Positions 43,359-63,424 are shown, counted from the first letter of the stretch. The stretch is DNA of 64,000 bases from Steroidobacteraceae bacterium (GCA_050179155.1 JBFXFJ010000005.1:108012-172011); one strand, 5' to 3'. A program made the numbers and translations. Notes: generated by a model not told the origin, from the letters alone.

Positions 43359-44489
43359 TCATTGCCCGGTCCGGAAGCGTGTCCAGGCGCGATTCAGTTC
43401 GCGGCTGAACTCCGGCGACTCGGCGAGATCCGGTTGCAGGCGCGCGCGAACCTCCGCGCTCGGGTAGATCGCCGGATCGTCGCGCACCTGCGCGTCGACC
43501 AGCGGCAGCGACGCGGCATTGCCGTTTGCAAACCGGGTCTTGTTCGAAACCCTGGCGATGACGGCCGGATCCATCATGAAGTTCAGGAACTCGTGGGCGT
43601 TGCCGGGATGGGGCGCATCGGCCGGTATCGCAAACAGGTCGAAATAGTTGATCGCGCCTTCCTTCGGGATCGCATAGGCGACCCGGACCGGATTCGCCGC
43701 TTCGGCGCCGCGATCCCGCGCCTGCAACACGTCGCCGTTCCAGCCGACCGCCACGCAGATCTCGCCCGAGGCGAGATCGTTGATATACGAGGACGAGTGG
43801 AGATACTTCACGTACGGCCGGACCTTCATCAGCGTTTCCTCGACGACCGCGAGGTCTTCCGGCTTCTCGCTGTTCGGGTCGAGGCCCTTGTAGATCGAGA
43901 CCGAGGCGAAGATATCGGTCGGCGAATCGAGCATCGCGATCCCGCATTTTGCGAGTTTCGCCGCATTCCCGGGCTCGAGGACCGCGCTCCAGCTGTCGAT
44001 CGTTTCGGTGCCGAGCGCCTTCTTGACCAAGTCGACGTTGTAGCCGATCCCGACCGTGCCCCATAGATAGGTGATCGCGTGCTCGTTTCCCGGGTCGTGC
44101 AGCGCCGTGCGCTCCATGATGTCCCGGTCCATGTTGACGAGGTTCGGGAGGCGGGACTTGTCCAGCTTCAGGTAGACGCCGGCCTCGATCTGGCGCTCGA
44201 GGAACGGGGCAGTCGGCACGACGACGTCATATCCCGAGCGGCCTGCCAGCAGCTTGGTCTCGAGGACCTCGTTGGAGTCCATGACGGCGTAGGTGACCTT
44301 GATCCCGGTCGCCGCCTCGAAGTCGGCGACCGTCGTGTCGCCGATATAGTCGGACCAGTTATAGACGAACAATTCCTTCTGTTCCGCCGCAGCCGGCGAC
44401 CCGGCGCCATCGCCTTCATCTCCGCCGCCGCAGGACGCCAGCAGCGCGAGGGCGGCCAGGCAGGACAGGTACCGGGAAACACCGCGCAT
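43359..44489 (-). CDS. potF: polyamine (putrescine/spermidine) ABC transporter periplasmic binding lipoprotein
   Basis: Start at the ATG at 44489, after GGAGG. Lipobox LLASC and PotF/SpuD-like sequence (LFVYNWSDYI, YLWGTVGIGYN). Confidence 0.85.
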   Translation of the reverse strand: MRGVSRYLSCLAALALLASCGGGDEGDGAGSPAAAEQKELFVYNWSDYIGDTTVADFEAATGIKVTYAVMDSNEVLETKLLAGRSGYDVVVPTAPFLERQIEAGVYLKLDKSRLPNLVNMDRDIMERTALHDPGNEHAITYLWGTVGIGYNVDLVKKALGTETIDSWSAVLEPGNAAKLAKCGIAMLDSPTDIFASVSIYKGLDPNSEKPEDLAVVEETLMKVRPYVKYLHSSSYINDLASGEICVAVGWNGDVLQARDRGAEAANPVRVAYAIPKEGAINYFDLFAIPADAPHPGNAHEFLNFMMDPAVIARVSNKTRFANGNAASLPLVDAQVRDDPAIYPSAEVRARLQPDLAESPEFSRELNRAWTRFRTGQ

Positions 44490-44565
44490 GAATGCCTCCA
44501 GCATCGGGAAACCGTGCGGTCGATACTACCGCGGGCGCGACTTCGCGCCCACTGCCCGGTGCCCG

Positions 44566-45951: not shown

Positions 45952-45964
45952 GGGGCCTCGCCGT

Positions 45965-47299: not shown

Positions 47300-48054
47300 C
47301 GGGTCCGCCTCGTCGCGTATGCGCGCCCGGCCTCGCCAAAGGCCGCAAACAGCGCGCGGGAAAACGGGTTCTCCATGACCTTCCATTCCGGATGCCATTG
47401 CACGGCGAGCGCAAAGGCCGGCGCGCCATCGACGCGAAATGCCTCGACCACGCCGTCGTCCGCCTTCGCCTCGGCGACCAGCCGGCGGCCGAGGCGTTCG
47501 ACGCCCTGCGAGTGCAGCGAATTGACCCGGATGCGCCGCTCGCCCGCGAGGCAGTGCAGCAGGCCGCCCTCGGCGAGCTCGACGTCGTGCGCCGGCGCGT
47601 ACTGCGTCTCGAGCGGCTGCGTCGCATCCTCGCGATGGTCGAAGTGCCCCGGCTGTTCCTGCAGCTTCTGGATCAGCGAGCCGCCAAAGGCCACGTTCAT
47701 TTCCTGGAAGCCGCGGCAGATGCCGAATACCGGCAGGCCGGCGTCGACCGCGCCCTGGATCATCGGCAGCGTGGTCGCGTCGCGCTCGGGATCGTGCCAG
47801 GTCCCGGGTGCCGAGGCGGGCCCCTGGTAATGGTGCGGCTCGACATTCGACGGGCTGCCGGTGAACAGGATGCCGTCGAAGGACTCGAGCCACTCCTGCA
47901 GGTACCGCTCGCCGAGCGCAGGGACCAGCACGGGCACCGCATCGGCCGCCTGGGCCACCGCCGCGATGTACTTTTCGCCGACGCAGTGGAACCAGTGCGA
48001 GCCCAAGAGTCTGCGATCGGCGGGAATTCCGATGACTGGTTTCCGCATATGCAT
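47296..48054 (-). CDS. spuA: gamma-glutamyl-gamma-aminobutyrate hydrolase (class I glutamine amidotransferase, SpuA/PuuD-hydrolase type)
   Basis: 252 aa with motifs GIPADRR, PVFGICRGFQEMNV and SLHSQG..WHPE. Confidence 0.85.
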   Translation of the reverse strand: MHMRKPVIGIPADRRLLGSHWFHCVGEKYIAAVAQAADAVPVLVPALGERYLQEWLESFDGILFTGSPSNVEPHHYQGPASAPGTWHDPERDATTLPMIQGAVDAGLPVFGICRGFQEMNVAFGGSLIQKLQEQPGHFDHREDATQPLETQYAPAHDVELAEGGLLHCLAGERRIRVNSLHSQGVERLGRRLVAEAKADDGVVEAFRVDGAPAFALAVQWHPEWKVMENPFSRALFAAFGEAGRAYATRRTR

Positions 48055-48297
48055 CTGTTAATTATTTTGAACGGCCACCGGCGGGGTGGCCTGTCCGACG
48101 CCCATATTGTCTCACAATCCGGGGGCCAGGCGCCCCGCCGGATCCACGGGCAATAATGCATTCTGGCGGGCCGTATTGGGGCCTCCCGCGGGATTATGTT
48201 GCACTGCATAAGCCTTGCCGGGGTCGAGTGCGGGTGGTTATCCTGCCCCGCGGCCATCTCCGGCCTGCGCCACAAGATCTTAAACGCCAGGTGCGCT

Positions 48298-49677
48298 ATG
48301 GCCCTGCTCCGGGACGATTATTCGAATGCAGAGGCTTTCCTCGCGGCGCGGCCGGCGATCAAGGTCGTGGACCTGTTGCTGCCGGATCTCTGCGCCGTGC
48401 TGCGCGGCAAGCGCGTCGACCTCGCCGACCTGCCAGGCATCTACGAACGGGGCATGTTCCTGCCCGGCTCGATGTTCGCGCTCGACGTGCTGGGCGGCAC
48501 GATCCAGACCACCGGGCTCGGCTTCGACGAGGGCGACGCCGACCGGCCCTGCCTTCCGGTCCCGGGCAGCCTGTTCGCCTCCCCCTGGCTCGGGCCGGGC
48601 GTGGCGCAGCTGCAGGTGCAGATGCTGGACCATGACGGCCAGCCGTTCTACGGCGATCCGCGGCACCAGCTCGACAGCGTGCTCGAGCGCTTCGGCGCGC
48701 GTGGCTGGCGGCCGGTCGTTGCCATCGAACTCGAGTTCTATTTCGTCGATCCCGAGCGGACCGCCGATGGCCATGCACAGCCGCCGCGCTCGCGCCTCAC
48801 GGGGCGGCGCGAGAACCGCACGCAGATCAACTCGATGGCAGATCTCGATTCCGTCTCCGACATCCTCTCGGAAATCGCGGCGACCTGCGCGGAGCAGGAC
48901 GTCCCGACCGGCACGGCGCTCGCCGAATACGGCCCCAGCCAGTGGGAAGTCAACCTTCGCCACGTCGCCGATGCGCGCCTCGCCTGCGACCAGGCCATCC
49001 GCTTCAAGCGCATCGTCAAGGGCGTTGCGTTGCGCAACGGCCTCGAAGCCACCTTCATGGCCAAGCCCTATGGCGACATGGCCGGCAGTGGCATGCACAT
49101 CCACGTCAGCGTGCAGGACGAAAGCGGCCAGAACCTGTTCGCTTCGGCGGATGCCCTCGGCAACGAACTGATGAAGCAGGCCGCCGCCGGCCTGCTCGCG
49201 ACCATGGCGGACGGCATGGCCGTGTTCGCGCCGAATGCCAACAGCTATCGCCGCCTGCGTCCCGAGACCTACGTGCCGATGCACGCGACCTGGGGTTACA
49301 ACAACCGCGGCGTCGCGGTGCGCGTGCCGGTCTCCGGCCCCGAGGACCGGCGCGTCGAGCATCGGGTCGCGGGCGCCGACGCGAATCCCTACCTGGTCGC
49401 CGCGGTCGTGCTCTCGGGCATGCTGCACGGCATCGAGAAGAAGCTCGCCGCACCGGCGGCCCTCACCGGCAATGCCTACACGCAACGGCTGCAGGCGCCG
49501 CGCCTGCCCGGCGACTGGCCGACCGCGCTTGCGCGCTTCAGCGCGAGCAGCTTCCTGCGTGAGTATCTCGGCGACCGTTTCGTGCGCCTCTATGAATTGA
49601 CGCGCCGCGGCGAGATGCAGGACTTCAATTCGCGCCTCACCGCACTGGATTTCGCGTGGTACCTGGAAACGACATGA
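48298..49677 (+). CDS. glutamine synthetase family protein, second gamma-glutamylpolyamine synthetase paralog (SpuB-like)
   Basis: Start at the ATG at 48298. Motifs IELEFYFVD, GSGMHIHVS, NSYRRL and GADANPY. Confidence 0.85.
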   Translation: MALLRDDYSNAEAFLAARPAIKVVDLLLPDLCAVLRGKRVDLADLPGIYERGMFLPGSMFALDVLGGTIQTTGLGFDEGDADRPCLPVPGSLFASPWLGPGVAQLQVQMLDHDGQPFYGDPRHQLDSVLERFGARGWRPVVAIELEFYFVDPERTADGHAQPPRSRLTGRRENRTQINSMADLDSVSDILSEIAATCAEQDVPTGTALAEYGPSQWEVNLRHVADARLACDQAIRFKRIVKGVALRNGLEATFMAKPYGDMAGSGMHIHVSVQDESGQNLFASADALGNELMKQAAAGLLATMADGMAVFAPNANSYRRLRPETYVPMHATWGYNNRGVAVRVPVSGPEDRRVEHRVAGADANPYLVAAVVLSGMLHGIEKKLAAPAALTGNAYTQRLQAPRLPGDWPTALARFSASSFLREYLGDRFVRLYELTRRGEMQDFNSRLTALDFAWYLETT

Positions 49678-50954
49678 ACCCGAAGCCCGCGCACAGCTGG
49701 TACGAGGCAACTGCCCGGCGACCGGCACCTGCGCCCGCACTCGCCGGCGACACGGATGCAGATGTGTGCGTGGTCGGCGCCGGGATCGCGGGGTGCTCGG
49801 CCGCCCTGCACCTGGCGGAGCGCGGCTATCGCGTCGTGCTGCTCGAGGCAGAGCGCGTGGGATTCGGCGGCTCGGGGCGCTCGGGCGGGCAGCTGATCCC
49901 GGGTTATGCGAGCGGCCAGGCGAAACTCGCCGCGCAGATCGGCAAGGCCGACACGCGGCGGCTGTGGGATTTCACGGTCGAGGGCGTTGACCTCGTACGC
50001 GATCGCGTCGCGCGCCATCGCATCGACTGCGACCTGGCCTGGGGCCACGTGCACGCCGCCATCAAGCCGCGCCAGCGCGATGAGCTGAAGGAGTGGCAGC
50101 GCGAGCAGGAGGACGAATTCGGATATCAGTCCCTTCGCTTTCTTGAGCGCGCTGAAGTCGAGGACTGGATCGCAAGCAAGCGCTACTGCGCGGGCCTCTA
50201 CGACAGCCGGTCAGGCCACCTGCACCCGTTGAATTTCACGCTCGGCCTCGCCACGGCGGCGCAGGCGGCGGGCGTGCGCCTGTACGAGAACAGCCAGGTC
50301 ACGGCCATCGAATGCGGACCGGTCGTCACGGTGCGCACCGCCACCGGCTCCGTGCGCGCGAAGCACGTGGCGCTCTGTGCCAACATCGGCCACGGCGGAT
50401 TCGCGCCGGCACTTGCGCGCAAGACCATCGGCATTGCCTCCTACATCGTCGCGACGCAGCCGCTTGGCGCCGAGCGCGCCCGGGCGCTGCTTCGCGACAA
50501 CATCGCGGTCGCGGACATCAACTGGATCATCGATTACTACCGGCTGTCCGCGGATAACCGCCTGTTGTTCGGCGGGCGCGTGAGTTACTCAGGGATCGAC
50601 CCGATCGGCACCGAGCGCGCGACGCGCCAGCGCATGCTGAACGTGTTCCCGCAGCTGGCGGATGCGGAGGTCGAGTACTCCTGGGGCGGCATCATCGACA
50701 TCTCGATGAATCGCGCGCCGCATTTCGGCCGGCTCGAGCCGAACATCTATTTCCTGCAGGGCTTCTCCGGGCACGGCATGGTGCTGACCGGCATCGCCGG
50801 AAAGATCGTCGCGGAGACGATCGCGGGCCAGGCCGAGCGCTTCGACATCTATGCGCGCCTCAAGCACCACGATTTCCCCGGCGGAATGCTGCTGCGCCGG
50901 CCGACGCTGGTGCTCGCAATGCTGTGGTTCCGGCTCAGGGACCTGCTGCCCTGA
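49674..50954 (+). CDS. puuB: FAD-dependent oxidoreductase, gamma-glutamylputrescine oxidase-like
   Basis: The ATG at 49674 overlaps the upstream stop (ATGA). Dinucleotide fold [22 protein letters not shown]; DAO family. Confidence 0.8.
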
Positions 50955-51039: not shown

Positions 51040-52737
51040 ATGGCGACCAAGGCGGGCGGCGGCGCACTCAGCAACATCGAGATCGCCCAGCGGGCGAAGA
51101 TGAAGCCCATCGTCCCGCTGGCCGTGGAACGCCTCGGGATTCCCGCCGAACATCTGCAGCCCTTCGGCCACTACAAGGCCAAGATCTCGCTCGACTATTG
51201 CAACCAGCTCGACGGGCGCACCGACGGCAAGCTCATCCTGGTGACCGCGATCTCGCCGACGCCCGCCGGCGAGGGAAAGACGACGATGACCGTCGGCCTC
51301 GGCGACGCCCTCAGCCGCCTCGGCAAGAAGGCACTCATCTGCCTGCGCGAACCGGCGCTCGGGCCGGTGTTCGGCATGAAGGGTGGCGCGGCCGGCGGCG
51401 GCTATGCGCAGGTCGTGCCGATGGAGGACATCAACCTGCATTTCACCGGCGACTTCGGGGCGATCGCGATCGCGAACAACCTGCTCGCCGCGCTGATCGA
51501 CAACCACATCTACCACGGCAACGCGCTCAACTTCGACACGCGGCGCGTCAGCTGGCGCCGCGTGGTCGACGTCAACGATCGCGCGCTGCGCGAGATCACC
51601 ATTGGCCTCGGCGGGCCCGGCAACGGCTTCCCGCGCCAGGACGGCTTCGACATCGTCGTGGCCTCGGAGGTCATGGCGATCTTCTGCCTCGCGACCAGCC
51701 TCAGGGACCTCAAGGACCGGCTGGGCCGGATCGTCGTCGGCTGCACGCGCGACCAGAAGCCGATCCTGGCGCGCGATCTCAAGGCCCATGGCGCGATGGC
51801 GGCCGTGCTGAAGGACGCGTTCGCGCCGAACCTGGTGCAGACGCTGGAGAACAACCCGGCATTCATCCACGGCGGCCCGTTTGCCAACATCGCGCACGGC
51901 TGCAACTCGGTGATGGCGACGCGCACGGCCCTGAAGCTCGCGGACTACGTCGTGACCGAGGCGGGATTCGGCGCCGACCTCGGGGCCGAGAAGTTCGTTG
52001 ACATCAAATGCCGCAAGGCGGGCCTCAGGCCCTCGGCCGCGGTGATCGTCGCGACCGTGCGCGCCATCAAGTACCACGGCGGCGTCGAGGTCGCGGACCT
52101 CAGCAAGGAAAACATGAAGGCGCTCGAGGCCGGGATCGCCAACCTCGACCGGCACATCGACAACGTGCGCGACGTGTTCGGCCTGCCCTGCCTGGTCGCG
52201 ATCAACCACCGCGCCGACGACAGCGAGGCGGAACTACGCTGGCTGACGGACCGGGCCATGCACCACGGCGTGAAAGTGATGGTCGCGCGGCATTACGCCG
52301 AGGGCGGCGCGGGCGCGATCGAGGTCGCGAAGGAAGTCGTCCGCCTCTGCGAGCAGCCCAACTACTTCAAGTTCGTGTACGACGACAGCGCCACGCTGTG
52401 GGACAAGATGAAGGCGGTCGCGACGCGCATCTATGGCGCCTCGGAGGTGACCGCCGACAGCAAGGTCCGGGCGCGCATCCGCCAGCTGCAGGACGCGGGC
52501 TACGGTAATTACCCGGTGTGCGTGGCGAAAACGCAGTATTCGTTCTCGACCGACCCGAAGCTGCGCGGCGCACCGACCGGGCACTCCGTCAACATCCGCG
52601 AGGTCCGCCTCGCCGCCGGCGCCGAGTTCCTGGTCATGATTTGCGGCGACATCATGACCATGCCCGGCCTGCCCGCGGTGCCGGCTGCCAACAACATCGA
52701 CGTGGACGACAACGGCCGGATCACCGGCCTGTTCTGA
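51040..52737 (+). CDS. fhs: formate--tetrahydrofolate ligase
   Basis: Start at the ATG at 51040. Motifs [30 protein letters not shown] and [12 protein letters not shown]. Confidence 0.95.
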
Positions 52738-53347
52738 GCGCGACCCGGTCGATCCATTCCTCACACAGCGCGATCGCCTCGGCAGGCCGGAAGCCCTTCG
52801 GGTCCAGGCACCACTCGAGCCACAATCCATCGAGCAGCGCTGTCAGGCCGATCGTCGCGACGCGCGCGCGGCTCGCCGGTCGCGCCCGCTGCTTCAGTAA
52901 ATCGCGGAGCAAAAGGCCGGGCAATGCGCCATAGCCGCGGCCCTCTTCCCGGTGCGCGCGGCGAATCTCCGGCGACTGCCGGAACAGCCCCCAGAAAACG
53001 ACCCAGGCAGTCAGCACTCTCGGATCCAGGTTGGGGCGTGCGAACACCGCTTCGATGAACGCCGAGAGGCGCGCGCGCGGATCGCGCGGTGCGCGCTCGA
53101 CCGCCGCCTGGAACCCAGCCGCAAGCTGGCGGCTGAACTGGCGGTAGCTCGCCGCCACCAGCGCATCCTTGTTGGGAAAGTGATGGTTGATCAGCCCGAT
53201 CGAAACCCCGGCCTGCGCGGCAATGCGCCGCACCGACAACCCCTCGTGGCCATGCCGCTTCAGGCTCCCGATCGTGGCCTCGACCAGCGCCTGGCGGCGC
53301 TCGTCCGCGCTGCGGCGCGCATACCGCCGTTTCCCGGCCGCGCTCAT
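52721..53347 (-). CDS. TetR/AcrR family regulator (BetI-like N-terminus)
   Basis: HTH region [28 protein letters not shown]. Its start overlaps the stop of the upstream flavoprotein gene (ATGA). Confidence 0.85.
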
Positions 53348-54903
53348 GGCTTCTGCAGTGCGCGCGCCGCGAGCAGCCCCGACAGGCCGGTGAGTCCCGG
53401 GCCCGGATGCGTGCCCGCGCCGCAGAGGAAAAGCCCTGGCAATGGCATCGCGTGGCGCGCATGGCCCGCCACCGGGCGCATGAAGAGCAACTGGTCGAGC
53501 GCGACTTCGCCACGCGAGACGGCGCCTTCGGGCAGGCCGAACCGTGCCTCGAGGTCGCGGGGGCAGAGCACGGCGCGGTGCATGATGCGCGACGCGAATC
53601 CGGGCACTTCACGCTCGACGGCGGCGACGGCGCCATCGGCCATGGCCTCGCGTGCCCCGGCCCATTCGCCGTCGCGCAGCTCCCAGGGCGTGTACTGCAC
53701 GCGCAACATCGCCACCTGCTTGCCGGACGGCGCGAGGCCCGGCTGCGTGACGCTCGGGAAGCGCAGCTCGATCACCGGCTCGCGCGAGACGCGCCCGTAT
53801 TTCGCGTCATCGTGCGCCCGCTCCACGTGTCGCACCGACGGCGCGATCCAGAAGCTGCCGGCCGGCGGCCCGGCGCAGCCCGGGATCGCAGGCAGGCCAT
53901 CGAGCCCCAGCAATACGATGCTCGTGACGCCGCGGTGGCGGATATGGCGCACGGCATCGATGAATTCCGTGTCGAGATGCAGCGGGTCCAGCAGTTCGAG
54001 CAGCGTGCGGCCGACGCCGGCGCCGGAGACCACGTTCCGGCAGGCGATTTCCTCGCCCGAAGCGAGCGCTACGCCGGCGATGCGATCCTCGCGCACCAGG
54101 ATCCGGCGCACCTCGGCGCCTGTTTCAATTTGCGCGCCAGCGGCCCGCGCCCGGTCCGCGAGCGCCGTGACCAGCGCGATGCCGCCCGTCTGCAGGCGCA
54201 GGCGATCGCCGAACACACCGGGTGCGGCGCCAACCTGGCGGTGCAGGAGCGCGAGCGCGGTGCCGCCGCCCATCGGTCCCTGCGGCAGGTCGGCCGTGCC
54301 GATCGCCGCGAGCAGGCCCTTGAGGCGGTCGTTCTCGAACCAGTCGTCGAGCAGGTCCGCAAGCGCAATCGGCAGCGTGTGCAGGAACTCGGTCATGCCG
54401 CGGCGGCCCAGCGCGCGATAGCGCAGGCCAAGGCCCGCGAGCGACATCAGCTCGCCGCGGCCCGTCGCTTCGAGCGCGAGAGCCGGGCGGCGGAGCAGCT
54501 CTCCCAGGAAGCCCGCGAGCGCGTGCATCTCGGCAGCGAATGCCGGCCAGGCCGCGGCATCCTTCGCCGAGAAGCGCTGCAGCCCTGCCGCGGTCGCGGC
54601 GGGCGTGCGGCCGATGGCGAGCGGCCCGCCCTCCGCGAGGGCGACGGCGCAGGGATCGGGCGCGACGGCGGCGGGCAGCACGGCTCCCGTCGCGCGCAGC
54701 ACGTCCTCGTGCACGTGGCCGAGGTCGGCAGCGAGCGGTGCGGCACGGAACTTCGGCGCGAACTCGATCTCGCGCAGCGTGCCGCCAGGTTCATGCGCGG
54801 CCTCGAGCACGAGCACGCGCTGCCGGGCGCGCGCGAGCATCGTGGCCGCCACCAGCCCGTCCGCGCTCGCGCCGATCACGATGCTGTCGAAATCACGGCT
54901 CAC
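53344..54903 (-). CDS. NAD(P)/FAD-dependent oxidoreductase, phytoene desaturase (CrtI)/amine oxidase-like
   Basis: GTG start; FDSIVIGASADGLVAATMLARARQRVLVLE...PGG; C-terminal LFLCGAGTHPGPG. Confidence 0.75.
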   Translation of the reverse strand: MSRDFDSIVIGASADGLVAATMLARARQRVLVLEAAHEPGGTLREIEFAPKFRAAPLAADLGHVHEDVLRATGAVLPAAVAPDPCAVALAEGGPLAIGRTPAATAAGLQRFSAKDAAAWPAFAAEMHALAGFLGELLRRPALALEATGRGELMSLAGLGLRYRALGRRGMTEFLHTLPIALADLLDDWFENDRLKGLLAAIGTADLPQGPMGGGTALALLHRQVGAAPGVFGDRLRLQTGGIALVTALADRARAAGAQIETGAEVRRILVREDRIAGVALASGEEIACRNVVSGAGVGRTLLELLDPLHLDTEFIDAVRHIRHRGVTSIVLLGLDGLPAIPGCAGPPAGSFWIAPSVRHVERAHDDAKYGRVSREPVIELRFPSVTQPGLAPSGKQVAMLRVQYTPWELRDGEWAGAREAMADGAVAAVEREVPGFASRIMHRAVLCPRDLEARFGLPEGAVSRGEVALDQLLFMRPVAGHARHAMPLPGLFLCGAGTHPGPGLTGLSGLLAARALQKP

Positions 54904-54950
54904 TACGACGCCTCTGTTGCAGACTGCGGCCGGCGAGCGCGGGATCCGGC

Positions 54951-55006
54951 GGGGTTCCTCGCTCGCAAACTCCGCCGGAACTCACGAGTTTGCTCGCGAG
55001 GACCCC
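54951..55006. other. extended intergenic hairpin
   Basis: The arms ggggttcctcgctcgcaaactc and gagtttgctcgcgaggacccc pair over about 19 bp, with one bulge, a 2x2 internal loop and a 13-nt loop. It sits in the 257-nt spacer between the two flavoprotein genes. Confidence 0.4.
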
Positions 55007-55159
55007 GCCACCTCGCGCACGCCGGCCGAAACGGTGTCACCGGCAGCGCCCGCACGCCGCGCGCGGCCGGGATCCTGCGAGCGAGCGCGTAAGTTCGGGC
55101 GGCGCGAGCGAGCAGGGATCGCGGCCGCGATGCGCGGGCGCGGATGCTGCGGCACTGGC

Positions 55160-56743
55160 TCATGAGTCCGCCAGGATGCGCTGCGCGGCCAGCTTTCCGG
55201 GTGCGCCCATCACGCCACCGCCCGGGTGCGTGGACGAACCGCACTGGTAGTAGCCGGCGATCGGCGTCCGGTAGCCCGCCCAGCGCACCGCCGGGCGCAG
55301 GAAGAAGAGCTGCTGCAGCGCCAGCTCACCCTGGAAGATGTTGCCCTCGGACAGCCCGGTCGTCGCCTCGATGTCGGCGGGCGTCAGCACCTGCCGGTGC
55401 AGGATCGCGGACTTCAGGTTGGGCGCGTACTCCGCGAGCGTGTCCACCACGGCATCGCCGAAAGCCTCGCGCTTCGCGTCGTCCCATCCGCCGTCGATGT
55501 GGTACGGCGCGTACTGCACGAAGATGCTGGCGACGTGGCGCCCGGGAGGCGCCATGCCAGGGTCGATCATCGACGGGAAGACGATATCCATGTACGGCCG
55601 GCGCGAGAATCCGCCGTGCTTCGCGTCGTCGTAGGCTCGCTCGAGATAATCGACGCTCGGACTGATCGAGAATGCGCCGCGGTGGTGCACGCCGACGCCG
55701 GGCATGCAGGTGAAGTCCGGCAGTTCCGACAGCGCGAGATTGACCTTGCCCGAAGAGCCGCGGAAACGGAAGCGGCGTACCTGGCGGAGCAGTTCGTCCG
55801 GGAGCTCCCGGCTGTCGACCAGGTCGAGGAAGGTGCGCCGCGCATCGAGTGCGGAAACGACGACCGGCGCGCGGATCTCCTCGCCCGTGTCGAGCACGAC
55901 GCCCATCGCGCGGTGGCCCCGCACCAGCAGCTGCTTCACAGTCGCCGAGGTGCGCAGCACCGCCCCCCGCGCGCGCGCCGCCGCGGCGATCGCGTTGCTG
56001 ATCGTGCCATTGCCGCCCTTGCAGAAACCCCAGGCCCGGTAGGCGCCGTCGATCTCGCCCATGTAATGATGGAGGAGCACGTAGGCGGAGCCCGGCGAGC
56101 GCGGCCCCATGAAGGTTCCGATGATTCCGCTCGCCGCCTTGGTCGCCTTGAGCGGCCCGTATTCGAACCATTCGTCCAGGTAGTCGGACGAGCTCATCGT
56201 CATCAGCTTGTAGAGCGCGTGAAACCGCTCCGCTCCGAGCGACTGCAGGTGGCCGCCGAGCCGGAGCAATCCCTTCAGGTCGCCCGGCGACAGCGAGGTC
56301 GGGTCCGGCGGGATCATGGCGAGGATCGGCTTGACCGCCCGCGCCATGTGCGACATGAGCCGGCCGAACTCGGTGATCGCCTCGGCGTCGAGCGGCGAGT
56401 GCCGGTACAGCTCGCGCCGCGTGAGGTCGGCATCGCCCCACATCGCGTGGTAGTCGCCGTCCGGGAGCGGCGTGACCGTGCTCTCGAGCGGCAGGATCTG
56501 CATGCCATGACGCGGCAGGTCGAGGTCACGGACGATCTCGGGCCGCAGCAGGCTCACCACGTAGGAGTACACCGAGAACGTGAACCCCGGGAACACCTGT
56601 TCGCTCACCGCGGCGCCGCCCAGCAGCTCGCGGCTTTCGAGCACGACGACCTTCTTCCCGGCGCGCGCGAGGTAGGCCGCGTTCACGAGGCCGTTGTGGC
56701 CGCCGCCGATGACGATCGCGTCGTACCGGTTGGCCGTGCTCAC
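55160..56743 (-). CDS. NAD(P)/FAD-dependent oxidoreductase, phytoene desaturase (CrtI)/amine oxidase-like, paralog 2
   Basis: The GTG start at 56743 overlaps the GcvT-like gene's stop (GTGA). YDAIVIGGGHNGLVNAAYLARAGKKVVVLE...LGG; C-terminal YQCGSSTHPGGGV. Confidence 0.75.
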   Translation of the reverse strand: MSTANRYDAIVIGGGHNGLVNAAYLARAGKKVVVLESRELLGGAAVSEQVFPGFTFSVYSYVVSLLRPEIVRDLDLPRHGMQILPLESTVTPLPDGDYHAMWGDADLTRRELYRHSPLDAEAITEFGRLMSHMARAVKPILAMIPPDPTSLSPGDLKGLLRLGGHLQSLGAERFHALYKLMTMSSSDYLDEWFEYGPLKATKAASGIIGTFMGPRSPGSAYVLLHHYMGEIDGAYRAWGFCKGGNGTISNAIAAAARARGAVLRTSATVKQLLVRGHRAMGVVLDTGEEIRAPVVVSALDARRTFLDLVDSRELPDELLRQVRRFRFRGSSGKVNLALSELPDFTCMPGVGVHHRGAFSISPSVDYLERAYDDAKHGGFSRRPYMDIVFPSMIDPGMAPPGRHVASIFVQYAPYHIDGGWDDAKREAFGDAVVDTLAEYAPNLKSAILHRQVLTPADIEATTGLSEGNIFQGELALQQLFFLRPAVRWAGYRTPIAGYYQCGSSTHPGGGVMGAPGKLAAQRILADS

Positions 56744-57942
56744 GCCTTCTTCCTCGGCGGGTCGAAGAACGGCAGCTTGCGCACCCGGGCATGGGCGCGC
56801 AGCCGCCGGTGCTCGACCGTCACCTCGATCTCGACCGGCGTGTCCGCCGCGAAATGGGGCGTGGCGAGATGCGCGAGCACGAGGTATTTCTTCAGGAGCG
56901 GCGACCAGCAGCCGCTCGACGCATAGCCTACCTGCCGGCCCGCGCGGTAGATCGGCACACTGGCGCGCCAGGCGACGGCGGGAATCGCGGGAGCGAGGTC
57001 GACCGCCGCGTACAGCGCCTCGAACGAGTCCCAGTCCACCTCGATGCCCACGAAGCGCCAGGCGGGCCCGCGTTCCTTCTCGGCCAGCAGCGCCCGCCGG
57101 CCGTTGTACGGTGCCTTGTCGAGCGCGACCGACCAGTCGAGCGAGAGTTCGAAGGGCGTGGACTTCTGCGCCTCGATCACCGCGCGAAGGGCGGAGTGAT
57201 AATCGACGTCCAGCATCACCAGGCCCGCCTCGATCCGCGCGACATCGAGCGCCCAGATGCCGGCGGGCATGATGCCGTGCTCGCGGCCTGCGGCCATCAG
57301 CGTATCCCACACCGCAAGCGCACCATCCGCCGGAATCCACAGCTCATAACCGAGATCGCCGGTGTAGCCGGTGCGCGATACCTGGATGTCCACGCCCGCG
57401 ATGCGGTTGTCCATCACATGGAAGTACCCGAGCGCGTCCACCGGGTCGCGTGCGACGGCGTTCAGCACCGCCCTCGACAACGGACCCTGCAGCGCGAGGG
57501 CCCCGAGCGCCTCGGAAACCTCCTCGATCGCGACCTGCATGCCGAAAGCGTTGCGGTGCAGCCAGCGCAGGCACGGTTCCGCCGACGTCAGCCGGTAGCT
57601 CTGCTCGCCGAGCCGGCTGATGGTGCCGTCGTCGATCACCTTGCCGCGCGCGTCGCACCAGCTCGTGTACAGCACCTGGCCCGGCTGCGACTTGCCGACG
57701 TTGCGCGTCGCGACGCGGTCCAGCAGGCGCGTGGCATCGGCGCCGGTGATCCGGTACTTGTACAGCGGCGAGACGTCGATGAGCGCCGCGGCGCTGCGGA
57801 TCGCCGCATACTCGCGGTCGTGCGTGAACTCGTAACAGCTGGCGGCCGCGTAGCCGGACCAGCGGCGCCAGGTCTGCCCCTGGACCAGGCGGGCGGTGCG
57901 CGCGTGGAAGGGCGTGGTCTTGAGGCTGTGCGGAACGCGCAT
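56740..57942 (-). CDS. GcvT-family aminomethyltransferase-like (THF-binding fold) protein
   Basis: 400 aa with motifs AALIDVSPLYKYRITGADA, VSRTGYTGDLGYELW and LEAGL. Confidence 0.8.
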   Translation of the reverse strand: MRVPHSLKTTPFHARTARLVQGQTWRRWSGYAAASCYEFTHDREYAAIRSAAALIDVSPLYKYRITGADATRLLDRVATRNVGKSQPGQVLYTSWCDARGKVIDDGTISRLGEQSYRLTSAEPCLRWLHRNAFGMQVAIEEVSEALGALALQGPLSRAVLNAVARDPVDALGYFHVMDNRIAGVDIQVSRTGYTGDLGYELWIPADGALAVWDTLMAAGREHGIMPAGIWALDVARIEAGLVMLDVDYHSALRAVIEAQKSTPFELSLDWSVALDKAPYNGRRALLAEKERGPAWRFVGIEVDWDSFEALYAAVDLAPAIPAVAWRASVPIYRAGRQVGYASSGCWSPLLKKYLVLAHLATPHFAADTPVEIEVTVEHRRLRAHARVRKLPFFDPPRKKA

Positions 57943-58028
57943 CGGCGGCGGGGTGGACCGGTCCGGACGTTGTTGAACAAGCGTACAGCAGTTGCGGAGA
58001 GGCGGTCAACGCACTGCTTGATTTGCTG

Positions 58029-58044
58029 TTGAACGATCGTTTAA
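58029..58044. promoter_or_regulatory. candidate operator palindrome in the divergent control region
   Basis: ttgAACGATCGTTtaa, with a perfect 10-bp core palindrome at 58032-58041. The word tgttgaac occurs twice (57971 and 58027). Confidence 0.35.
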
Positions 58045-58092
58045 TTTAGCGTCCGGCGCCGGCCGGAAGCGCTGCGGCAAGGCTGGATCACC

Positions 58093-58986
58093 ATGCTCTC
58101 CTCCACCCCGTCCCGCGATCGGCTTTCAGTGCCGGAACGCCAGGCCCTGGCGCAGGCGGTGCATGAGAGCTACATGGAGGTCTTCCCGAGCGCGAGCGTC
58201 GAGCACCGGCTCCAAGTCCTCGAGCCGCGCTCCTACGTCGCGATCACCTGCTCGCCGACGCACGGGGTCGATGCGACCCTGGAACTGACCGGGCGGGTCG
58301 TCCGGCGCGGCTTCCGGGTCGTGCCGCACGTCGCCGCGAAGTCGGTGCGCGACCACGGGCATCTGCGCGATATCGTGCGCCGGCTCGCCGACCTGGGAGT
58401 GGACAGCCTCTTCGTCCCGGGCGGCGATACCGGGCGCCCGCTCGGTCCTTATTCGACCGCCGCGCAACTGTTGCGCGACCTCGCCGCGCTCGATCACCCC
58501 TTCCGGCACATCGGGGTCGCTGCGCACCCCGAAGGCCACCCGTCCGTCGACCCGGAGACGCTGCTGCAGGAACTTGCCGCCAAGCAGGCCTTCGCAAACT
58601 ACCTGGTGACGCAGATGTGCTTCAATGCGTCGGTGCTTGCCGCCTGGCTGCGCCTGATCCGCGCCCGCGGCATCACGATGACGGCATGGATCGGCCTGCC
58701 CGGCGTGTTCGACCGTGCGGCGCTGCTCGCGGCCTCGTTGCGCATCGGCGTCGGCGCTTCCCTGCGGCTGCTGCGCGACCGGGGCCGGCTCATCGGGCGG
58801 CTGTTCGGGCCGAAGGTCTATCGCCCGGATGCGTTCCTGCATGAACTGGCGCCGCAACTGGCCGACCCGGCGCAGGGGATCGCCGGATTCCACATCTTCT
58901 GCTTCAACCGGGTCGAACAGTCGGAGCACTGGCGCCGGCAGTTCGTCGCCGGGCTGCAGCAGGGCCACGCGGTGGCCGCGCCATGA
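58093..58986 (+). CDS. methylenetetrahydrofolate reductase family (MetF-like) protein
   Basis: 297 aa: MEVFPSAS..., YVAITCSP, VPHVAAK, GFHIFCFN. Confidence 0.7.
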   Translation: MLSSTPSRDRLSVPERQALAQAVHESYMEVFPSASVEHRLQVLEPRSYVAITCSPTHGVDATLELTGRVVRRGFRVVPHVAAKSVRDHGHLRDIVRRLADLGVDSLFVPGGDTGRPLGPYSTAAQLLRDLAALDHPFRHIGVAAHPEGHPSVDPETLLQELAAKQAFANYLVTQMCFNASVLAAWLRLIRARGITMTAWIGLPGVFDRAALLAASLRIGVGASLRLLRDRGRLIGRLFGPKVYRPDAFLHELAPQLADPAQGIAGFHIFCFNRVEQSEHWRRQFVAGLQQGHAVAAP

Positions 58987-60497
58987 CCCGGCCCGGCAGC
59001 AGGGACCGGCGCGTGGTTTCGGCGGTGCGCCAGTTGCCGTTCAGCCGTCTCGTCAATCCCTATGCGCCGATCGAGGTGCTCCGCGCCGACCAGGTGGAGG
59101 CAATCATCGATGCGGCGCTCACGATACTCGAGACGCGCGGCATGCGGTTCCTCGAGGCAGGCAGCCGCGAGACCTTGCGCGCGGCCGGTGCCGTATCCGA
59201 CGAAGCGAGCCGGATGATGCGATTCGACCGCGGGCTCGTGCTCGAAAAACTCGCGCTGGCGCCCGCCGGTTTCACGCTGCGCGCCCGCAACCGCGTCCGC
59301 GACCTTCGCATCGGTGGCCGGGACATCGTCTTCAGCTCGGTGGGCGGGCCGGCATTCTGCAGCGACCTCGACCGGGGCCGGCGTCCGGGCACGCACGCCG
59401 AGCTCTGCGACTTCCTGCGGCTGGTGCAGAGCCTAAATATCATTCATCAGGAAGGCGGCGGCGCCTTCGAGGCGATGGACCTGCCGCCGGAGTCGCGCCA
59501 TCTCGACCTTTACCTTGCGCAGTTCACGCTGCTCGACAAGAACTGCCAGGCCTATGCGCTCGGGCGGGAGCGCACGGTCGACTGCATCGAGATGACCTGC
59601 CTGGCGCTCGGCGTCGACCGCGCCGAACTGGCGCGCGACCCCGCCGTGATGGCGATCGTCAACACCAACTCGCCGCTGCAACTCGACGTCCCGATGACCG
59701 AGGCGGTGGTCGAGCTCGCCGGATCCGGCCAGGCCTGCTGCATCACGCCGTTCACCCTGGCGGGCTCGATGAGCCCGGCCACGATCGCGGGCACGCTCGC
59801 GCAGCAGACCGCCGAGGTGCTCGCGGTCGTGACCCTGGCACAGGTCGTGCGGCCGGGCGCCCCGGTCATCTACGGCTCGTTCGCCTCGAACGTGGACATG
59901 CAGAGCGGCGCGCCGGCGCTCGGCACGCCGGAATACGCCAAGGCCGCGCTGGCCAGCGGCCAGATCGCGCGCCGGCTGGGCCTGCCGCTGCGCTCGAGCA
60001 ACACGACCTCATCCAACTGCGTCGATGCGCAGGCGGCCTATGAGAGCTCGATGTCCCTGTGGGGCGCGATCATGGGCCACGCCAACCTCGTGTATCACGC
60101 CGCCGGCTGGCTCGAGAGCGGACTGACGGCCTCGTTCGAGAAGCTCATCACCGACGCCGAGATGCTGCAGATGATGGCCGAGTTCCTGCGGCCCATCGAA
60201 GTCAACGCCGGCGAACTGGCGCTCGACGCCATTGCCGAGGTGGAGCCCGGCGGCCATCATTTCGGCACGGCGCACACCCTCGCCCGCTACGAAACCGCGT
60301 TCTACATGCCGATGCTTTCGACCCGCCGGAACTTCGAGTCGTGGCAGGAGGCCGGGGGACTGGATGCCGCACAGCGGGCGAACGTCATCTGGAAAAGGCT
60401 GCTGGCCGACTACCAGCAACCGCCGCTGGACCCGGCCATCGCCGAGTCGCTGGCGGACTACGTGGCGCGCCGCAAGGACGACATCCGCAGGCGCTGA
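58983..60497 (+). CDS. trimethylamine methyltransferase (MttB) family protein, non-pyrrolysine
   Basis: 504 aa and uninterrupted. Motifs NTNSPLQLD, ITPFTLAGSMSPATIAGTLAQQTAEVLA and FASNVDMQSGAPALGTPEY. ATGA overlap with the MetF-like gene. Confidence 0.85.
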   Translation: MTRPGSRDRRVVSAVRQLPFSRLVNPYAPIEVLRADQVEAIIDAALTILETRGMRFLEAGSRETLRAAGAVSDEASRMMRFDRGLVLEKLALAPAGFTLRARNRVRDLRIGGRDIVFSSVGGPAFCSDLDRGRRPGTHAELCDFLRLVQSLNIIHQEGGGAFEAMDLPPESRHLDLYLAQFTLLDKNCQAYALGRERTVDCIEMTCLALGVDRAELARDPAVMAIVNTNSPLQLDVPMTEAVVELAGSGQACCITPFTLAGSMSPATIAGTLAQQTAEVLAVVTLAQVVRPGAPVIYGSFASNVDMQSGAPALGTPEYAKAALASGQIARRLGLPLRSSNTTSSNCVDAQAAYESSMSLWGAIMGHANLVYHAAGWLESGLTASFEKLITDAEMLQMMAEFLRPIEVNAGELALDAIAEVEPGGHHFGTAHTLARYETAFYMPMLSTRRNFESWQEAGGLDAAQRANVIWKRLLADYQQPPLDPAIAESLADYVARRKDDIRRR

Positions 60498-60521
60498 ATC
60501 GACCGGGACTGGAGGCTTGTG

Positions 60522-62042
60522 ATGCGACCGACCATCCATATCGTGGGCGACGAGCTGATCGGCAAGGTGCTGGCCGAGGCGAAACGCATCCTGGCCGAAA
60601 CCGGCATGGAGATCCGCGGCCTGCCGCTGCGCGAGCGCCTGCTCGCGCACGGACTGCCGGTCAGCGCGGGCGGCCGCGTGCTGTTTCCGCCGCAGGTCGT
60701 CGATTCCGCGATCGCGAGCGCGCCCAAGTCATTCACGCTGTACGACCGCGACGGCAACCCGCACGCCGAGATCGGCGGCTGGAACGTGCACTTCATCCCG
60801 GGCTCGAGCGGGCTCAAGATCATGGACCATCGGAGCCACGAGACCCGGCTCGCGAACTCGACCGATTTCGTCGAGTACGTCCGGCTGTGCGACGGACTGG
60901 CGCACATCCCCTATCTCGCGACCGCGTTCTCGACGAATGCCGACATCGAATCGCAGGTGTCCGACGCCTGGCGCCTGTACATGGTGCTGACGAACTCGAA
61001 GAAACCGGTCGTGTCGGGCGCGTTCAGCGAGCACGGCGTACCGCGCATGGCCGAGATGATGCAGGTCTTCCGCCGCGACCGCGCCGAACTGGTGGCGAAA
61101 CCGATGTCGATCTTCACGGTCACAGCGGCCGGCAATTTCCGCTTCGGCGAGGATTCCTGCCAGAACCTGCTCGACTGCGTCGAGGCCGGGATTCCGGTGG
61201 AGATCGTCCCGGTCACGCTGATGGGCCTGATCGCGCCGGTGACGCTGGTCGGCGCGCTGGTCTTTCACTGCATCGACGTGCTCGCCGGCATCACGATGGC
61301 GCAGATCATCCGCCCCGGCGCGCCCGTGCTGTTCGGCGGCGCACCCGCCACTTTCCACATGCGGGCCGCGAGTTCGCCGATGGCCGCGATCGAGGCGCAG
61401 CGCCTGAATGTCGCCTACGTGGCGGTCGCGAAGTCGCTCGGCCTGCCGACACAGGCCTACATGGCGCTCTCCGACGCCAAGTTTCTCGATGCGCAGGCGG
61501 GCGCGGAGACGATGTCCTCCGCATTGCTCGCGGCGCTCGCGGGCGTCAACTCGGTCTCGGGGCCGGGCATGCTCGACTACGTGCTGACTTTCAGCCTGCC
61601 GAAGCTCGTATTCGACAATGAAGTCTGCGGCCAGTGCCTGCACTTCGTGCGTGATGTCGGCGTGCTGGAGGACCTGCCGGCCGCCGGACTGGTCGAAGAC
61701 CTGACCGCCCAGGACCACCTGATCACCGCGCCGCACACGCTGAAATACTGGCCGCAGGAACTGTACCTGACCGACCCGGTCTTCGACCGCCTGAACCGCG
61801 AGACCTGGACCGAGGCCGGATCCATGGAACTGTATCAACGCGCCTGCGAGCAGGTGGAACACCGCCTCGCCGCCTATGCACCCGTGGAAACTGATGCCGG
61901 CGCCGATGCCGAACTGCGGCGGCTCGTCATGGCCGGGCTGCGCCAGCAGAGCGAGCTGCCGGTGCTGCCGGCGCCGCCCGCGCAAGCGCCGGCAGATCCT
62001 GCGCGCGGCCGGCGAACCCGTCCCGGCAGGCGACGCAACTGA
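60522..62042 (+). CDS. MttB family protein, divergent second paralog, non-pyrrolysine
   Basis: ATG at 60522, 6 nt after [23 protein letters not shown] and [19 protein letters not shown] are collinear with the first paralog. The C-terminal tail is Pro/Arg-rich. Confidence 0.8.
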
Positions 62043-62093: not shown

Positions 62094-62930
62094 ATGAACA
62101 CCAAGCCCGATGCTCAGGCCGTGCGGCGATTGCGGATCGGCGCAATGCACGGCGGACGGCTCACCGCGCGCGATGACGCCGTCGCCGTCGAGGAGCCGCT
62201 GGAGATACGCCTCGCCCTGCCGGGCGACGCGGGCCCTGGCCGCGCGGTTTCCATCACCATGCGCACGCCCGGGCAGGACGTCGAACTCGCGGTCGGCTTC
62301 CTGCACGGTGAGGGCATCGTCCGTTCGCGCGAGGCAATCGCCTCCGCGCGCCCTTGCGGGCCGACCGGAAACGTGGTGCGCATCGAGCTTGCATGGGATG
62401 CGCCACATGACCTGACCCGGCTCGACCGGAACTTCTACACGACCTCGAGTTGCGGGATCTGCGGCAAGGCCTCGCTCGAGGCCGTGCAGGAAATGCTGCC
62501 GGCGCGGCCGGTCGAATCGGCGCTGCGCGTGCCGGCAGGCCTGCTGGGTTCGCTGATCGAGCGCGCCCGCGGCGCCCAGGGCGTGTTTCGCGAAACCGGT
62601 GGCCTGCACGCCTCGAGCCTGTTTGACGCCGGCGGCCGGCTGCTCGAGACGTTCGAGGACGTCGGCCGGCACAATGCGCTCGACAAGCTGGTGGGCTCGC
62701 GGCTGCTCGCGGGCCTGCTGCCGCTCACCGACAACCTGCTGCTGCTCTCCGGCCGCGCGAGTTTCGAACTCCTGCAGAAAGCCGCGGCCGCGGGCGTCGC
62801 GGCGGTCGCCTCGATCGGCGCGCCGTCGAGCCTGGCGATCGACCTGGCGGAACGGACCGGCATCCTGCTGGTCGGCTTCCTGCGCGAGGAGACATTCAAT
62901 GTGTATGCGCACGGGGAGCGCCTGCAATGA
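62094..62930 (+). CDS. fdhD: formate dehydrogenase accessory sulfurtransferase
   Basis: Motifs SSCGICGK and GRHNALDKLVG; 278 aa. Confidence 0.9.
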   Translation: MNTKPDAQAVRRLRIGAMHGGRLTARDDAVAVEEPLEIRLALPGDAGPGRAVSITMRTPGQDVELAVGFLHGEGIVRSREAIASARPCGPTGNVVRIELAWDAPHDLTRLDRNFYTTSSCGICGKASLEAVQEMLPARPVESALRVPAGLLGSLIERARGAQGVFRETGGLHASSLFDAGGRLLETFEDVGRHNALDKLVGSRLLAGLLPLTDNLLLLSGRASFELLQKAAAAGVAAVASIGAPSSLAIDLAERTGILLVGFLREETFNVYAHGERLQ

Positions 62931-63424
62931 GCGCGCGCACGGGCGGCGGTAACCTCGGCGACTCCGACCGGGCCCGGGTGCTCGCGATCGTCGAGCGCCA
63001 CCGCCACCGCGACGGCCCGCTGCTCGAGATCCTGCACGAGGTGCAGCGCGCGCTCGGCTGCGTGCCGGGGCCTGCGATCGCAATCATCGCCCAGGCGCTC
63101 AACCTGTCGCGCGCCGAAGTGCATGGCGTCGTCACCTTCTATCATTTCTTCCGCGAGGCGCCACCGGGTGCGCGCGTGTTGCGACTGTGCCGGGCCGAGG
63201 CCTGCCAGTCGATGAACGGCCGCGCGCTCGAAGAGCACGCGACGCAGCGTCTCGGAATAAAGTGCGGCGAGACGACGCCGGACGGCCGCATTACCCTCGA
63301 GGCGGTCTATTGCCTCGGCCTGTGTGCCTGCGCACCTTCGGCCATGCTGGATGGCGAGGTTCACGGGCGTGTCACGCCACAAAGGCTCGACGAACTGCTC
63401 GCCGGCAAGGACGCAGTGCCATGA
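62927..63424 (+). CDS. fdsG: NAD-dependent formate dehydrogenase gamma subunit (NuoE-like 2Fe-2S)
   Basis: 165 aa with LLEILHEVQ and the Cys pattern CRAEAC...CLGLCACAP. ATGA overlaps on both sides. Confidence 0.85.
   Translation: MSARTGGGNLGDSDRARVLAIVERHRHRDGPLLEILHEVQRALGCVPGPAIAIIAQALNLSRAEVHGVVTFYHFFREAPPGARVLRLCRAEACQSMNGRALEEHATQRLGIKCGETTPDGRITLEAVYCLGLCACAPSAMLDGEVHGRVTPQRLDELLAGKDAVP

Follow-up and report, generated by a model that had tools for sequence, protein, structure and literature searches.

A probable Mtg-type quaternary-amine demethylation operon with a deleted corrinoid module beside a GcvT/flavoprotein gene unit in a Steroidobacteraceae bacterium

Gene content of the MttB locus

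We analyzed a stretch of 64,000 nucleotides from Steroidobacteraceae bacterium (GCA_050179155.1 JBFXFJ010000005.1:108012-172011), in the following called the window, which carries two genes of the MttB methyltransferase superfamily of the non-pyrrolysine (non-Pyl) type, here named MttB1 and MttB2. A first-pass annotation of the sequence had read these genes as part of a new, corrinoid-free route for the demethylation of methylated amines. Comparison with related loci led us to a different interpretation: judged by its sequence, the locus is probably a reduced form of a known aerobic demethylation system that depends on vitamin B12. Gene identities were assigned by Pfam and NCBIfam profile matches.

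On the plus strand, a gene for a MetF-like flavoprotein (58093-58986, 297 amino acids (aa); a weak PF02219 match of 34 bits) is followed by MttB1 (58983-60497, 504 aa) and MttB2 (60522-62042, 506 aa). The stop codon of the MetF-like gene and the start codon of MttB1 overlap as ATGA, and a GGAGG motif lies 7 nucleotides (nt) 5' of the ATG of MttB2. Both MttB proteins matched PF06253 at full length and passed its gathering cut-off of 25 bits, with scores of 610 bits for MttB1 (positions 10-499/500) and 253 bits for MttB2 (positions 29-492/500). The two open reading frames (ORFs) cover the family model from one end to the other, contain no internal stop and carry no in-frame UAG. The scores of the two proteins for the equivalog trimeth_pyl (TIGR02369) were 288 and 277, which is below the cut-off of 525.

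These genes face a second operon on the minus strand across a divergent control region of 150 nt (57943-58092), which contains two palindromic operator-like boxes and the remnant of a corrinoid protein gene. The minus-strand operon starts with a stand-alone GcvT-family protein predicted to bind tetrahydrofolate (THF) (56740-57942, 400 aa; PF01571 with 209 bits, and PF08669). It is followed by a CrtI/amine-oxidase-like flavin adenine dinucleotide (FAD) protein, here named flavoprotein A (55160-56743, 527 aa; PF01593 over the full length, 58 bits), by a structured spacer of 256 nt on the same strand (54904-55159) that is conserved in one related locus, and by a second protein of this type, flavoprotein B (53344-54903, 519 aa; PF01593, PF01266 and PF13450). 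The last gene encodes a BetI-like TetR repressor (52721-53347, 208 aa) with the domains TetR_N and TetR_C_6.

Genes of one-carbon (C1) metabolism flank this arrangement on both sides, all of them on the plus strand. Upstream lies fhs for formate-tetrahydrofolate ligase (51040-52737, 565 aa; PF01268 with 865 bits, and NF010030 with 889 against a cut-off of 652). Downstream of MttB2 the genes fdhD (62094-62930; PF02634) and fdsG (62927-63424; PF01257, and the formate dehydrogenase gamma subunit model NF004638 with 229 bits against a cut-off of 198) are followed by the start of fdsB, which runs from 63421 to the window end at 64000. The genes fdsA and fdsD are located directly beyond the window end, as seen in another assembly of the same species (L001), and complete an operon for a nicotinamide adenine dinucleotide (NAD)-dependent formate dehydrogenase.

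The layout reported in the first-pass annotation was thus reproduced, including the ATGA coupling, the divergent arrangement across 150 nt, the position of fhs and fdhD-fdsGB and the absence of an in-frame TAG from both MttB ORFs. Only the size of the spacer between the two flavoprotein genes had to be corrected, from 257 to 256 nt.

All characterized members of the MttB family are cobalamin dependent. However, neither the corrinoid protein nor the DUF1638 protein, the pterin-binding methyltransferase, the RACo-type activase, the PF13769 protein, FolD or the homocysteine methyltransferase of related operons (see below) had a tblastn match in the 64-kb window. Almost all of the remaining genes of the window were annotated with Pfam, none of them being B12-related, and an Rfam scan of the window detected no cobalamin riboswitch and no other Rfam family. 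The earlier remark that a corrinoid protein, a second methyltransferase and an activase are missing nearby can therefore be extended to the whole 64 kb. The corrinoid-less arrangement was identical in four independent assemblies (two metagenome-assembled genomes (MAGs) from NCBI and two Logan assemblies) and is therefore not an assembly artefact.

Orthologous operons in related bacteria

A scan with MttB1, restricted to one genome per species, yielded 80 loci with 66-89% identity, all of them from MAGs of Gammaproteobacteria. The architecture of these loci was derived from tblastn synteny and Pfam annotation, and for upstream counts only those loci were used in which 6 kb or more of upstream sequence was available. 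Individual loci are referred to by L numbers.

The dominant arrangement is an operon with all genes on one strand in the order corrinoid protein (PF02607 and PF02310), DUF1638 protein, a small PF13769 protein, pterin-binding methyltransferase (PF00809), RACo-type activase ([2Fe-2S] and ASKHA domains), MetF-like protein, MttB1 and MttB2. The corrinoid protein was present in 27, the RACo-type activase in 25 and the pterin-binding methyltransferase in 24 of 54 loci. Among the loci that carried the MttB1-MttB2 pair, the corrinoid protein was encoded in 26 of 37, and five further loci that were looked up carried it as well. Look-ups of individual contigs revealed more complete operons at L086, L088-L098, L105 and L188, and the loci L007 and L051 held the corrinoid protein in the same operon. 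Operons of the full type were found in Steroidobacteraceae, Woeseiaceae and other Gammaproteobacteria; in the Woeseiaceae a homocysteine S-methyltransferase gene stands alongside.

The divergent layout of the window was found again in four related species, which include L087, L102 and L186. In these three loci the genes for the BetI-like repressor, flavoproteins B and A and the GcvT-like protein lie opposite those for corrinoid protein, DUF1638 protein, methyltransferase, RACo-type activase and MttB. L087 and L102 additionally contain the PF13769 protein and the MetF-like gene, both of which are lacking in L186. Conservation of the gene neighbourhood, which had been suggested as a check of the corrinoid-free route, was thus observed for the divergent layout as such, but with the corrinoid genes in place. 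Furthermore, the next genes in L087 and L102 are fhs, folD and fdhD-fds, where fhs directly follows the MttB gene and is located beside folD. The coupling of MttB to a MetF-like gene, fhs and a NAD-type formate dehydrogenase, with the GcvT/flavoprotein module and its BetI-like repressor on the opposite strand, supports the reading of the window locus as a methyl-group oxidation island and is complemented by folD in these two loci.

The closest relative of the window, L005, encodes an MttB1 of 94% identity. Here, the corrinoid protein gene is the only gene between GcvT and the MetF-like gene. Its product retains an intact DxHxxG motif, and the ratio of nonsynonymous to synonymous substitution rates (dN/dS) of the gene was 0.14-0.15, which indicates purifying selection. 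The BetI-type gene closes the minus-strand operon in the window as well as in L005, L087 and L186.

The genes fdhD-fdsGBAD follow MttB2 in the window species and are not found at this place in L005, which has rlmL as the next gene. Just past fdsD, the sequences of L001 and L002, both assemblies of the window species, also diverge. The C1 genes at this site are therefore rearranged even among close relatives.

Deletion of the corrinoid module

The 150-nt control region of the window aligns with the region between the GcvT and corrinoid genes of L005, L087 and L102. Within it, a remnant of approximately 26 nt (about 58052-58077) is homologous to codons 2-9 of the corrinoid gene, the start codon of which has been lost. 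After this remnant the alignment jumps to the short spacer between the corrinoid and MetF-like genes, and about 0.68 kb, corresponding to the body of the corrinoid gene, is gone. According to this alignment the locus has lost its corrinoid module in the lineage of the window. Genes for the corrinoid protein, the second methyltransferase and the activase would consequently be needed at another genomic site.

Two palindromic boxes of the control region are conserved. Box 1, GTTGAACAAGCGTACAGC, is located at 57972-57989. Box 2, TTGAACGATCGTTTAA, is located at 58029-58044 and occurs only once in the window. It was found just 5' of the first operon gene in 15 loci. The gene behind it is the corrinoid gene in L005, L007, L051, L087 and L102 and the MetF-like gene in the window, L006, L008, L009, L010, L012 and L024. 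Because the same box precedes either the corrinoid or the MetF-like gene, the truncated operon can be regarded as a recurrent derivative that kept its control region. A scan of the control region for sigma-70 promoters gave no match. The flanks of five truncated loci at the species level were occupied by unrelated genes.

Two contigs of the MAG JAQBHG01 carry the truncated MetF-like/MttB1/MttB2 form (L012, JAQBHG010000050.1) and a full corrinoid operon with an MttB1 stump of about 100 aa in front of MttB2 (L188, JAQBHG010000049.1), respectively. We considered this pair as proof of supply in trans and rejected it, since both contigs share their starting flank, which is identical over approximately 140 nt and 90% identical over 242 nt before the sequences diverge. 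As the same flank opens both contigs, they probably represent alternative alleles from co-binned strains. This has the appearance of a structural polymorphism, in which strains that live together differ at a single chromosomal site.

The MttB pair

MttB1 and MttB2 share only 26% identity. The closest solved structures were a putative methyltransferase (4yyc, 2e-103) and the glycine betaine methyltransferase MtgB (9yce/2qne, 4e-87) for MttB1, and MtgB (9yce, 1e-53) for MttB2.

Where enough downstream sequence was available, the tandem pair was present in 49 of 70 loci. However, operons with a single MttB gene (L087, L102, L105 and L186) held only the MttB2 type, with 80-84% identity to MttB2 of the window, and in 17 of the 54 loci MttB1 was the only gene of the set, accompanied by neither a MetF-like nor an MttB2 nor a corrinoid gene. 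Because the tandem pair is common yet not obligatory, these distributions appear to fit two substrate specificities better than a heteromer. The heteromeric MttB pair considered in the first-pass annotation is thus unlikely, and the two enzymes probably take different substrates.

In pairwise comparisons with L005, dN/dS was 0.09 for fhs, 0.10 for MttB1, 0.11 for flavoprotein A, 0.14 for GcvT, 0.17 for BetI, 0.22 for MttB2, 0.23 for flavoprotein B and 0.33 for the MetF-like gene; these values span the time before and after the deletion and do not isolate the post-deletion branch. The range of 0.09-0.33 for all genes indicates purifying selection and therefore argues against simple decay.

The MetF-like protein

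The closest solved relative of the MetF-like protein is S6MTHFR (7xg9, 5e-29; 105 bits over residues 16-284), while a canonical bacterial MetF reached only about 1e-5 (28 bits). S6MTHFR oxidizes CH3-THF, barely uses NADH and defines the type 4 methylenetetrahydrofolate reductases (MTHFR), a family that also takes in the MetF of the corrinoid-dependent chloromethane pathway (PMC11868366). The motifs of type 4 are Leu48-Pro49 with Arg78, Phe215 together with Cys219, and Pro268-Phe269-Gly-Gly-Leu (PMC11868366). In the alignment to 7xg9 only Pro49 and Phe269 were kept. Since most of the signature residues differ, the protein represents a related but distinct MetF subfamily.

The MetF-like gene was located directly 5' of MttB in 35 of 79 related loci. 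This position, together with the precedent of MetF2, supports a role in methyl-THF oxidation, and by analogy we predict that the protein converts 5-methyl-THF to 5,10-methylene-THF. A function as substitute for the second methyltransferase was considered and dropped, as the full operons hold both the PF00809 enzyme and the MetF-like protein.

The divergent GcvT/flavoprotein operon

The best solved match of the GcvT-like protein was the C-terminal THF domain of trimethylamine N-oxide demethylase (9q5a, 2e-53); the next best were the corresponding domains of dimethylglycine and sarcosine oxidases (1pj5, 4p9s and 1vrq, ~1e-23 to 1e-24). The gcvT equivalogs were missed, with 144 against a cut-off of 236 for TIGR00528 and 205 against 300 for NF001567. 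Based on these scores, the protein shares the fold of the family and is not the glycine-cleavage enzyme.

The two flavoproteins are, by the same kind of evidence, CrtI-like in fold only. The crtI_fam model TIGR02734 (cut-off 238) gave 95.6 for protein B and 112.6 for protein A, and protein B is not a carotenoid desaturase, as its score is below the cut-off. The sole solved relative of protein B was CrtI (4dgk, E = 6e-9), and those of protein A were CrtI (4dgk, 2e-13) and 6-hydroxy-L-nicotine oxidase. The BetI-like repressor matched PF00440 and PF13977 (85 bits) and scored 120.8 for NF001978 (cut-off 118) and 119.5 for TIGR03384 (cut-off 201.3).

A metagenome scan with flavoprotein A yielded 80 soil and sediment loci (L106-L185) with 63-82% identity. 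The GcvT gene and the second flavoprotein paralogue adjoined flavoprotein A wherever the contig was long enough, and nearly all of the 80 loci carried the three genes together. A general linkage of this module to MttB was rejected, because MttB or corrinoid genes were almost never nearby in the 80 loci. Occasional neighbours were an amino-acid permease (9 loci), PurU (7 loci), the alpha subunit of a Rieske oxygenase (5 loci), an aminotransferase and an aldehyde dehydrogenase. In L068 the module is located 3.7 kb downstream of a full Mtg-type operon. A literature search on the combination of GcvT and CrtI-like proteins returned no paper. GcvT and the two flavoproteins form a widespread and apparently uncharacterized unit of three genes. 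We infer a self-contained THF-linked oxidative N-demethylase that was recruited beside the MttB operon in this clade; the simplest candidate substrates would be dimethylglycine and sarcosine.

The spacer between the flavoprotein genes forms two long predicted hairpins in the minus-strand transcript, with a minimum free energy of -163.4 kcal/mol and z = -6.1 against shuffled sequences. It is about 89% identical to its equivalent in L087 (L087:6835-7108), which is above the conservation of the neighbouring protein. In L005 and L186 the spacer is absent and the flavoprotein genes overlap. No Rfam family matched the spacer. It could be an insertion similar to repetitive extragenic palindromes (REP) or miniature inverted-repeat transposable elements (MITE), or an intercistronic RNA element.

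Directly upstream of fhs a Puu-like gamma-glutamyl-amine cluster spans 41203-50954. It comprises two glutamine-synthetase-type ligases, a peptidase C26 hydrolase, a DAO-type oxidase, a class III aminotransferase and a PotABCD-like ABC transporter. Genes of polyamine or amine catabolism are also located near the module in L005, L068 and some of the metagenome loci.

Proposed pathway and alternative explanations

Taken together, the genes on the plus strand probably form the end of an operon that is conserved in Gammaproteobacteria and serves the Mtg-type cobalamin-dependent demethylation of a quaternary amine. By analogy with characterized systems, an MttB protein would move one methyl group from a quaternary amine, most likely glycine betaine, to the Co(I) of a corrinoid protein, from which the pterin-binding enzyme would transfer it to THF. 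The MetF-like flavoprotein would then oxidize 5-methyl-THF to 5,10-methylene-THF, and the carbon would reach formate and CO2 through Fhs, the formate dehydrogenase Fds and a FolD encoded elsewhere. The divergent operon may strip the remaining N-methyl groups oxidatively: the CrtI-like pair would oxidize the tertiary and then the secondary amine, and the GcvT-like protein would capture the C1 unit on THF. The BetI-like repressor may control both operons via the two palindromic boxes. The missing partners would be supplied in trans, for which Ruegeria pomeroyi and Eubacterium limosum offer precedents.

Several observations weigh against this interpretation. No corrinoid protein, second methyltransferase or activase could be traced to the assemblies of the window species among the best 120 clusters per search. 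In these searches, performed with the corrinoid protein of L005 and the RACo-type activase of L087, all ten candidate proteins that were placed on contigs came from other genomes. At least five further species share the truncated MetF-like/MttB1/MttB2 operon and likewise have no corrinoid module in the surrounding 10 kb. Furthermore, the window contains no betaine-type transporter, and neither MttB protein is near a characterized enzyme, the similarity to MtgB of Desulfitobacterium hafniense being moderate (4e-87 for MttB1 and 1e-53 for MttB2). In the MetF-like protein the type 4 residues are changed from Leu48 to Ser, Arg78 to Ser, Phe215 to Ala, Cys219 to Ile, Pro268 to Cys, Gly-Gly to Asn-Arg and Leu to Val. 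Finally, the role of MtgB in R. pomeroyi rests on proteomics and not on genetics or enzymology (PMC12478193).

The absence of any partner gene from 64 kb and the failed tracing of a closely related corrinoid protein or RACo-type activase to this genome among the best 120 clusters per search would also be expected if MttB1 and MttB2, possibly as a heteromer, passed methyl groups to THF, bypassing corrinoid protein, second methyltransferase and activase, and the MetF-like enzyme oxidized the product. The occurrence of the truncated operon in at least six species, with promoter/operator kept and under purifying selection, points in the same direction. However, every characterized enzyme of the MttB superfamily methylates a corrinoid (PMC12155760, PMC8604678, PMC12478193), orthologues with 66-94% identity sit in operons with the complete corrinoid machinery, and the window state is visibly derived by deletion. 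Partners are unlinked in experimental models, too, and MttB1 and MttB2 each occur singly. The corrinoid-independent route, which was the central proposal of the first-pass annotation, is therefore not sustained by the orthologous operons (26/37) and the deletion scar, and we regard it as very improbable. If the genomes indeed hold no partners, MttB would act without a dedicated corrinoid protein, using THF directly or the cobalamin on an enzyme such as MetH; to this outcome we likewise give a very small chance. The deletion could also have left a decaying remnant, in which the MetF-like and MttB genes no longer work. A stepwise loss, from the full module in L087 over the corrinoid protein alone in L005 to none in the window, agrees with this, as do the MttB1 fragment of ~100 aa in L188, which demonstrates that gene decay occurs at the locus, and the highest dN/dS of 0.33 for the MetF-like gene. 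Against it stand three intact and translationally coupled ORFs with dN/dS of 0.10-0.33, the identical sequence in four assemblies, and a truncated form that several species share (85-89% identity) and in which the operator is preserved. We consider decay improbable.

A further alternative keeps the corrinoid chemistry and replaces glycine betaine by another substrate, namely choline or phosphocholine, proline betaine, carnitine or trimethylamine. In one candidate variant, choline or phosphocholine would be converted via dimethyl- and monomethylethanolamine to ethanolamine, which would enter the adjacent Puu-like genes. BetI-type regulators classically sense choline, and the Puu-like cluster with its ABC transporter lies immediately upstream (41.2-50.95 kb). 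L005, L068 and some metagenome loci likewise have genes of polyamine and amine catabolism beside the module, and MttB1 and MttB2, with only 26% identity to each other, are both distant from characterized enzymes. However, L087, L102 and L186 do not share the Puu-like neighbourhood, glycine betaine is the sole aerobic precedent (PMC12478193), and the known MttB substrates carry an acidic group (PMC12155760). Such a substrate is possible but seems doubtful to us. Glycine betaine, demethylated with corrinoid partners supplied in trans, remains our preferred reading.

Comparison with known systems

The first-pass annotation had stated that characterized non-Pyl MttB members are known only from anaerobes. 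This is outdated, since the aerobic R. pomeroyi DSS-3 possesses an MtgB/MtgC/MtgD system for glycine betaine together with MetF2, RamA and a DUF1638 protein, the genes of which are scattered (Mausz et al., PNAS 2025, PMC12478193). Genetic evidence showed that growth on glycine betaine, and methionine synthesis as well, require both mtgC and mtgD, and co-located operons were reported in marine Gammaproteobacteria (PMC12478193). R. pomeroyi and the orthologous operons described here have in common PF06253 proteins (two paralogues), PF02310/PF02607, PF00809, a DUF4445/RACo activase, DUF1638 and a MetF paralogue. The host is in both cases an aerobic proteobacterium, MetF feeds, or here would feed, a THF-linked C1 oxidation, and partner genes may be unlinked. 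The window differs in holding only the MetF-like and MttB genes of this set and in its host, a Steroidobacteraceae gammaproteobacterium from soil or sediment as compared to a marine roseobacter. For the downstream demethylation, the window has the GcvT and two CrtI-like genes, whereas in R. pomeroyi only 'predicted' dimethylglycine and sarcosine proteins have been named (PMC12478193). SPO2108 and SPO2134 of R. pomeroyi are possible counterparts of MttB1 and MttB2.

The anaerobic systems used for comparison were MtgB/MtgC/MtgA with RamA of D. hafniense and MtpB, MtcB, MtyB and MthB of E. limosum, the latter with MtqC or MthC, MtqA or MthA, and RamQ as partners. These share the superfamily of the first methyltransferase with the window, and the logic of three components and an ATP-dependent activase with its relatives. 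Several MttB enzymes can use one corrinoid protein; in E. limosum a single corrinoid protein and a single second methyltransferase serve several MttB members (PMC12155760). Anaerobes send methyl-THF to the Wood-Ljungdahl pathway, whereas oxidation to CO2 by the MetF-like protein, Fhs and Fds is proposed here. Additionally, the activase in the relatives of the window has a [2Fe-2S] RACo-type architecture, unlike that of the anaerobic systems.

A divergent MetF tied to a demethylase that produces methyl-THF and to genes for formyl-THF or formate, as proposed for the window, is also found in ligM-metF-ligH of Sphingobium SYK-6, the module of S6MTHFR (7xg9), and in cmuAB-metF2-folD-purU of Methylobacterium CM4. 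The GcvT/flavoprotein module in turn shares a THF-binding domain and the partnership with a flavoprotein with fused N-demethylases (dimethylglycine dehydrogenase/oxidase, sarcosine oxidase alpha and Tdm). It differs from them in that the THF domain is a separate protein and in having two flavoproteins that belong to the CrtI/amine-oxidase and not to the DAO family.

As first read, the locus would have meant a new biochemistry of methyl transfer; the present evidence points to an aerobic B12-dependent route. A route of the glycine-betaine type would thereby reach abundant Gammaproteobacteria of soil and sediment (Steroidobacteraceae and Woeseiaceae). The genes for B12 handling are modular, being full, partial or absent at one site in close relatives, and this matters where B12 dependence is predicted on the basis of gene clusters. 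Of what this analysis leaves over, the most interesting part is the unit of GcvT and two CrtI-like genes, a candidate THF-linked N-demethylase found widely in soil metagenomes.

Other features of the window

The window has a base composition of about 69% G+C and contains no tRNA gene. Apart from the genes described above it encodes purine catabolism, icd/aceK, an element with three recombinases, a branched-chain keto-acid dehydrogenase and the Puu-like cluster. The purine/urate catabolism cluster (7707-17407) comprises an amidohydrolase, an adenosine deaminase, a molybdoenzyme of the xanthine-dehydrogenase type, a membrane urate oxidase, an OHCU decarboxylase, an allantoicase and a ureidoglycolate lyase, and the gene behind it encodes a TonB-dependent receptor. 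Three tandem tyrosine recombinase genes (26076-28941) show a layout like that of a 'recombinase in trio' element. They adjoin an ORF of 587 aa without a Pfam match and a stretch of low G+C content (23650-26100; ~58% compared to the background of ~69%). The recombinase region is probably a mobile element.

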